From assembly GCA_951406725.2 (NCBI GenBank), contig OX597835.1, positions 8,246,001-8,310,000 of the forward strand: 64,000 nt of DNA. The letters are read 5' to 3'. How positions within the stretch are numbered: the stretch's first letter is position 1; each line of letters begins with the position of its first letter. Of this stretch, positions 3,917-24,911 are shown piece after piece. Origin of the DNA: Octopus vulgaris (lineage: Eukaryota). Below the pieces are notes generated by a model. The model ran no database searches. It saw nothing but the letters and a program-made list of their open reading frames with translations, and was not told the DNA's origin. The position numbers and the translations under genes are program-made.

Positions 3917-3958
3917 AATTCTTGAAAAGTCACATTATGACGAAAACCGGTTTGAATT
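3917..3958 (+). ncRNA. Minimal type I hammerhead ribozyme, U3-A8 core variant
   Basis: AATTC|TTGAAAA|GTCA-catta-TGAC|GAAA|ACCGGT|TT|GAATT; perfect stems I and II, palindromic stem III AACCGGTT; lies in a (TA)n-flanked insert at 3625-4070. Confidence 0.8.
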
Positions 3959-20800: not shown

Positions 20801-20894
20801 TATTTTCTTCCTGAAGAGAAAGACACAATATGGTCCCATTATTCAATCGGAATTTGGTAATTTGTGCCTTTCGAAACACGTGTAGAATGAAATA
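20801..20894 (+). ncRNA. Type I hammerhead ribozyme, canonical core
   Basis: tattttcttc|CTGAAGA|GAAAGACACAA...TTGTGCCTTTC|GAAA|CACGTG|TA|gaatgaaata; GUA site after 20884; palindromic stem III ACACGTGT; in TA-flanked insert 20634-20950. Confidence 0.85.
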
Positions 20895-23787: not shown

Positions 23788-23843
<56 letters not shown>

Positions 23844-23982
23844 TTATATATATATATATATATTACGGAGATGTACTTGCATAGCAAGTGACCTGGTCTG
23901 AGATCGTTGCAGCGTGGAAGGTGTTTATAAGCCATTTAATAAACACACAAAATCCGTTAGATTCACTTCAGCATTTAAACGT

Positions 23983-24038
23983 AATTTGTCAAAATATTTT
24001 CGTCGCTTTGAGACCGCGACCTGTTCACTGACAAAATT
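23983..24038 (-). ncRNA. Minimal hammerhead, G3-C8 swapped core
   Basis: Minus: AATTTTGTCA|GTGAACA|G|GTCGC-ggtctcaaa-GCGAC|GAAA|ATAT|TT|TGACAAATT; 7-bp stem I, 5-bp stem II, palindromic AATATT. Confidence 0.72.
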
Positions 24039-24911
24039 CCGTGCATCACGGAATTTTGTCAATGAACAGGTCGCGGTCTGACGTGTCGGAATATACTGGC
24101 TGTTTTAATTAAGAAATTCGCATCGTCAAACATTGGATTGTAAAAAGAGTATATAAAAACAGGCGTTATTAATTCATATCTTAATATTTTCCAGTCGCAC
24201 ATATTAGAAATATTAATTACCATATCCTATCGTAAATATGCTAAACATTTCAAAACATACTTTTCACTGATATTATGCATTTCAACAATTATAAATATGT
24301 TTATATTTTCTCCGATAAAACCAATATCGGATTAGAAATAAACAATAGCGGTTACACGTAATTTCTTAATATGTTGATCAATACTAATTATAGAAACAGT
24401 TGATGCACCAATATAAATATTCCGGCAACAATGTAATTCACGAACTGAAAGAAGACAATAGAATGTCCAGTTAGGTGTGAGCCGTGGCTCAAATTGAAAG
24501 TACAAAAATTAATATATTATTTCATTACAGGATATAGGTTAATTTATTGCAACAGAAATAGAACGAAGCAACATGAAAATCTTTGGTAAAATTAACAATT
24601 AGCTCAGAAAATTAATCAGTCTACACCTGAACATGAACAATAGGAAAACAATCAGTTGGCTGAAAAATAGGCACACTAGGAACGATTCTAAGTTTACTCT
24701 GTTTTTTATTGTTTATATTTTGTGTACACAAATTCTACCTAAAGCAACACAACGGATGTTTCAGATACAGAAGTATTGCGGGTATATACATACATACATA
24801 CATACATACATACATACATACATACATACATACATACATACATACATACATTCATACATACATACATACGTACATACATGCATGCATGTATATATATATA
24901 TATATATACAT

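Follow-up and report, generated by a model that had tools for sequence, protein, structure and literature searches.

A hammerhead-like motif with an inverted 3–8 pair

Can a natural hammerhead ribozyme carry a G3-C8 pair in its core, and is such a core the accident of a single copy or the property of a family? The question is raised by a short minus-strand motif in the window analysed here, a 64-kb stretch (64,000 nt) of the 2.8-Gb genome of Octopus vulgaris (Table 1). A first-pass annotation had described it as a hammerhead with a swapped core; motif, stem lengths and coordinates were correct, and we regard it as a homologue of hammerheads in which the 3–8 pair is swapped to G3-C8. An extra G next to A9 and the palindromic stem III (AAUAUU) had been overlooked. 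With the minimal hammerheads of Penelope-like elements (PLEs), the motif has stems I and II, a nucleotide at 9b and a palindrome at 15.2–16.2 in common. It departs from the PLE consensus core, CUGANGAH, reading GUGAACAG at this locus, where the 3–8 pair is kept by inversion and 9b is G. A strict descriptor scan found one match in the window vs none in 30 shuffles, while the Rfam hammerhead models, searched against 23862–24100, gave no match at E values up to 10.

Folding places position 3 opposite position 17, with a pair probability of 0.67 for G3-U17 and 0.98 for G3-C17; a dimer duplex through AAUAUU is predicted to be marginal (−0.2 kcal/mol). Three raw RNA runs from one study (approximately 6% of each; libraries not of the end-mapping kind) contained 1,637, 1,258 and 1,186 family reads, equally in both directions; 81–84% of these continue into unlike sequence and their ends do not pile up.

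Table 1. Features of the Penelope-like insertion and of other hammerhead-like motifs in the window
Feature	Position	Strand	Remark
U3-A8 hammerhead-like motif, palindromic AACCGGUU, without 9b base	about 3917–3958	+	
Candidate C3-G8 hammerhead, palindromic ACACGUGU, long loop II, 3-bp stem I	about 20808–20890	+	descriptor scan
(TA)n microsatellite, insertion target at element 3′ end	23790–23862	.	many family copies finish in (TA)n
Long arm of PLE insertion: pseudo-LTR 5′ region and tail, 19-nt internal deletion	23862–24044	-	86% to natural copy, positions 7–215
Remnant of first ~30 codons of PLE ORF; holds the tail; disrupted by deletion	23862–23935	-	L159: same sequence runs in frame into ORF
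Minimal type I hammerhead motif	23985–24035	-	motif layout and folding
Stem I, 7 bp	24035–24029 / 23991–23985	-	
Palindromic stem III AAUAUU (23998–23993) and U17 (23992)	23992–23998	-	predicted cut 23992/23991
GAA	24001–23999	-	
Stem II, 5 bp	24020–24016 / 24006–24002	-	
Extra nucleotide 9b = G, between A9 and stem II	24021	-	common to 14/14 aligned rows
Core strand GUGAACA (G3 = 24028, C8 = 24023)	24022–24028	-	
Head-to-head arm junction at self-complementary TGCA near element 5′ end	24042–24047	.	junction recurs in paralogues
Inverted second arm, stops inside loop II, G3→A at 24062	24042–24079	+	92% to family positions 3–40

The swapped core is the consensus of an abundant repeat family

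The window carries one copy of a multi-thousand-copy repeat. Its paralogues keep G3 and C8 together, the point on which the first-pass annotation had proposed to judge the swap: of the 1,209 exact matches to a 34-mer in which positions 3, 7 and 8 may be any base, the first 100 listed include 95 with both bases. An 18-mer with any base other than G at position 8 has 7,405 matches (among the first 100 listed, C8 in 100 and G3 in 97), and the 18-mer with G8 has 244, with C3 in none of the first 100 listed. These counts refer to arms (see below), not to insertions, and amount to at least 7,405 + 244 exact matches; the genome holds at least 7,400 arm copies. A Watson–Crick 3–8 pair also prevails among 169 arms from loci that were not chosen by core patterns, some of them having been chosen by overall similarity to the copy in the window: 158 retain G3 and 155 retain C8. 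The G3-C8 core noted in the first pass is thus genuine, and what had looked like a rare, single oddity is the consensus of an abundant PLE family.

An ancestral G3-G8 intermediate subfamily was considered and rejected in favour of recurrent mutation, as the 244 G8 matches are scattered over several subfamily backgrounds. Three loci (L232, L244 and L252) have G8 in one arm only. A retrozyme or satellite unit was likewise rejected, since a 425-bp tandem array on C27 includes unrelated flank; each unit of this array (L073–L077; G000:C27, ~32.596–32.599 Mb) consists of one family copy with damaged stems plus flanking repeat DNA. On C1, one and the same inverted insertion occurs with identical flanks in many places (L033, L040–L042, L048, L053–L056, L058–L060), and is therefore carried within a larger repeat or duplication.

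The parent is a C-terminal-endonuclease Penelope-like element

RNA reads disclosed an upstream extension shared by the family, of which the genome holds 473 exact copies; upstream of such copies lies a microsatellite-rich 3′ UTR and the end of an ORF with a CxxxCxxC linker and a GIY-YIG domain. At locus L146, the frame spans 1,025 amino acids, and its GIY-YIG domain scores 25.4 bits (Pfam cut-off 22.6). The Pfam search of this frame gave no reverse transcriptase (RT) family match; the RT motifs DKSG and YVDD were read directly. One related ORF matches, at 98% identity, a protein whose named source is Octopus vulgaris. Locus L159 is a tandem unit in which a G3-C8 motif is followed by the ORF and by a second G3-C8 motif 4,261 nt later; here, the sequence of the element's 3′ end reads through in frame to the ORF, which identifies the tail as the start of the ORF. 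The pseudo-LTR arrangement is direct and tandem in L159, and inverted in L146 and others. With a single ORF combining RT and C-terminal GIY-YIG, and a tail extension on one end only, the family is a C-terminal-endonuclease (EN+) PLE.

The linker before the endonuclease (CQSNCAVC in L146) has the form CX2-5CxxC and fits the Neptune or Nematis clades, a placement by linker motif rather than by tree. The Neptune/Nematis-type C-terminal EN+ PLEs (Craig et al. 2021, PMC8557442) share with the octopus family the RT, the linker and the C-terminal GIY-YIG, as well as an inverted 5′-truncated copy, a tail at one end and (TA)n targeting; the swapped core and the untemplated G described below are not mentioned for them in the available portions of that paper.

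The fold-back is a standard inverted insertion

The fold-back seen in the first pass (24011–24043 / 24047–24079, 3-nt loop) is correct and pairs at 32 of 33 positions. It had been described as capping the hammerhead; the paralogues identify it instead as the standard inverted insertion of a PLE, a two-arm layout that Craig et al. describe as typical of these elements (PMC8557442). Among 110 loci chosen by similarity, pattern or tail, a few of them segmental duplicates, we found 60 inverted pairs: 47 join a long arm (ending near +207) to a short one (near +147), nine, like the pair in the window, include an arm with a different end point, and four are symmetric. The arm junctions often lie at a self-complementary TGCA, that of the window copy included. 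The A3 and the truncation reported for the mirrored copy are both there, the arm ending in loop II; the A3 is ordinary post-insertion decay, because it recurs in seven of the 169 arms and because the retention of G3 and C8 resembles that of neighbouring G and C positions.

With a folding energy of −63.6 kcal/mol (z = −12), the hairpin dominates the fold. In a transcript of the minus strand, the second arm precedes the ribozyme and is predicted to tie up its stem I, its core and half of its stem II; for this reason, the ribozyme of the window copy is probably silent, buried by the hairpin.

Related hammerheads and the origin of the swap

A same-frame pattern search gave 1,630 matches, mostly from a very young family with C3-G8, C9 and U17, and the same-frame pattern Y3-R8-A9 gave 653, mostly canonical CUGAUGA with C17; in the related families, homologous ORF starts lie within the downstream sequence. 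Among the families seen, G3-C8 is confined to one, and homologous relatives keep C3-G8, U3-G8 or U3-A8, so that the swap is derived. In an alignment of 14 rows (two from the family, 12 from relatives), the 3–8 pair is C-G in five, U-G in four, G-C in two, U-A in one and unpaired in two. Double changes occur in stems I, II and III, and the covariation score of 0.226 (vs 0.137 shuffled; 1 in 500 shuffles) is supportive without being a clean test, because the patterns by which the rows were chosen fix the majority of letters in stem II and the core, and the rows are mostly single copies.

The sister PLE at L147 (G000:C15, ~42.993–42.998 Mb) is very young, with many copies at 99–100% protein identity and several intact ORFs of 1,310–1,312 amino acids. 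In its hammerhead, C replaces the normally invariant A9 and position 17 is U; A9 and C17 are found in its older subfamily. A host protein model (P0053, “dynein regulatory complex subunit 6-like”) contains a 97% identical piece of the sister ORF, by either annotation artefact or exonisation. Canonical minimal hammerheads of other repeats (CUGACGA or CUGAUGA, A9b, ACGU palindrome) were found at L163 and at L072 and L193.

As to the first-pass claim that three of the possible 3–8 pairs coexist in the window, the U3-A8 motif is present, probably from a different PLE group, and other loci have comparable motifs, their palindromes 6 to 8 nt long. The only C3-G8 candidate found, near 20811, has a 3-bp stem I and a long loop II. 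The pairs stem from unrelated insertions.

The PLE hammerheads of Cervera and de la Peña (2014, PMC4209133) resemble the octopus motif in their type I layout, the extra nucleotide after A9, G10.1-C11.1, a short palindromic stem III, location in the pseudo-LTR, frequent U17 and copies on opposite strands. They differ in the core, as G3-C8 occurs in none of the 56 representatives in their Fig. S3, which have C3-G8 and U3-A8, and in 9b, which is G in one of the 56 (published consensus H). Natural covariation at positions 3 and 8 is also on record from Perreault et al. (2011, PMC3088659), theirs being U3-A8, with no G3-C8 in the available portions of that paper; both papers name U3-A8 as natural. 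Among the papers searched, G3-C8 and C3G/G8C were encountered as engineered variants only, and a natural G3-C8 may be described elsewhere.

Position 17 bears on how the swap could be tolerated. The first-pass annotation had called the UUU triplet normally a poor site; among PLE hammerheads it is not unusual, with U17 in 24 of the 56 of Fig. S3 and a UUU site in an oyster PLE (PMC4209133). Kalweit and Hammann describe the mirror trap, C3-G17, and report that G3-C8 fares better without C17 (PMC3884650). Because G3 would pair with C17, a U at this position would make the swap tolerable, and U17 may have allowed it.

Whether the fold still serves catalysis is a separate matter. The family could descend from a hammerhead that is now catalytically dead, its fold kept for protein binding, for promoter or translation control, or by drift, with G3-C8 incidental. 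The copied templates appear uncut (see below), the insertion of a lizard PLE in vitro was unaffected by hammerhead mutants (PMC11167929), and the active sister subfamily has A9C; that it has spread shows that a perfect core is unnecessary. Moreover, the conservation of structured positions is not significant by count: subfamily changes above 10% affect 13 of 71 flank and loop positions vs two of 35 structured ones, both of them pairing-preserving (p = 0.07). Against this reading, a double transversion that exactly restores the 3–8 pair is improbable by drift, and the core and stems are intact while five of nine loop II positions differ between subfamilies. We hold a dead descendant to be unlikely.

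The 5′ ends of copies suggest a capped, uncut template

The 5′ ends of family copies cluster approximately 60 nt upstream of the cut site. Of 167 arms, 70 start at −2 to +2 of ATGCAG and a further 38 occupy two bins produced in part by alignment artefacts; two have their start no more than 3 nt from the cut site (+59), in a sample biased against such arms. The ATG is preceded by AG in 45 of the first 100 of 342 copies in which the upstream template does not continue, and 27 of these 45 show G at −3 instead of the template's C (the others: nine C, six T, three A; hand count; p = 5e-9 against 0.2). In L1, the additional G found at full-length junctions is a trace of the mRNA cap (PMC11702581), and the untemplated G of the octopus copies is probably a copied cap as well. 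A search of the PLE literature for extra G or capped 5′ ends listed nothing clearly relevant. The capped RNA would start 24 nt before G3, and the copied RNA would thus have held an uncut hammerhead. The idea that G3 is a promoter base, belonging to a downstream promoter element (+28 to +32), was dropped, as the sequence at these positions is unlike the consensus.

These 5′ ends could instead mark a 3′ splice site, the extra letters deriving from an upstream exon. The sequence upstream (that of the 473 exact copies) does resemble a branch point, a pyrimidine tract and CAG, and the Drosophila Penelope has an intron in the corresponding region (PMC2377424). However, the base at −4 of the 27 GAG junctions is not conserved (13 T, 11 A, two G, one C), the GAG directly abuts the target duplication or follows it by 1–2 bases (L320, L240, L321), and the one spliced junction that we guessed had no genomic match. 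For the 5′ ends, splicing therefore seems a rather improbable source.

That the locus is a MITE or a hairpin-RNA gene resembling a hammerhead by chance, as its long inverted arms and weak miRNA-model matches (far below gathering scores) could suggest, is hardly credible, as the head-to-head arms differ in length, some copies consist of one arm with a target duplication, and the reading is refuted by the physically linked PLE ORF and the relatives with canonical cores.

A model for the insertions and its implications

The locus is, in our judgement, probably a short insertion with two arms, derived from an abundant octopus PLE whose end repeat carries a minimal hammerhead motif with a family-wide G3-C8; this is likely a weak ribozyme, which would need dimerisation or the help of a protein to cut. 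In the mechanism that we propose, transcription would start approximately 24 nt upstream of G3, yielding a capped RNA; the element's enzyme would nick both strands of AT-rich DNA, and reverse transcription would begin at two internal sites within the first 30 codons. Each cDNA would extend to the 5′ end of the uncut RNA, and the two would be joined head to head as one long and one short arm. The swap would have persisted because the 3–8 pair was kept, tolerably with U17.

PAc, a Poseidon element of Anolis (Frangieh et al. 2024, PMC11167929), offers a parallel: its tail likewise occupies the beginning of the ORF, flanked by two sites of RT initiation, its targets are AT-rich and its insertion template is uncut RNA. 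It differs in its tail of 30–40 nt (approximately 60 nt in octopus) and in the Cys linker, which the octopus element has, unlike PAc. The G3-C8 of PAc is a laboratory double mutant, that of octopus is natural; the mutant (C3G/G8C) is partially active and needs the PLE protein.

We more tentatively entertain that the G3-C8 hammerhead of this successful family is catalytically active in nature, its fixation made possible by U17, and that the thousands of insertions are an in vivo record of reverse transcription from two internal sites to a capped, uncut 5′ end. Activity is favoured by the partly active laboratory mutant and by the exact restoration of the 3–8 pair; it is made doubtful by the rarity of G at 9b, the marginal dimer duplex, the competition of G3-U17 with G3-C8 and the spread of the A9C sister. 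If this is true, the pool of transcripts would be the ribozyme's substrate, rather than the copied template.

G3-C8 cores escape the standard descriptors (CUGANGA, UUGANAA), and hammerhead counts are consequently underestimates. The related PLE families of this one genome (C3-G8/C17, C3-G8/C9/U17, U3-A8 and G3-C8/U17) form a natural series for core tolerance. The insertion footprints bear on the role of the PLE hammerhead: the copied RNA seems to have been capped and uncut, in agreement with the in vitro behaviour of the lizard PLE.
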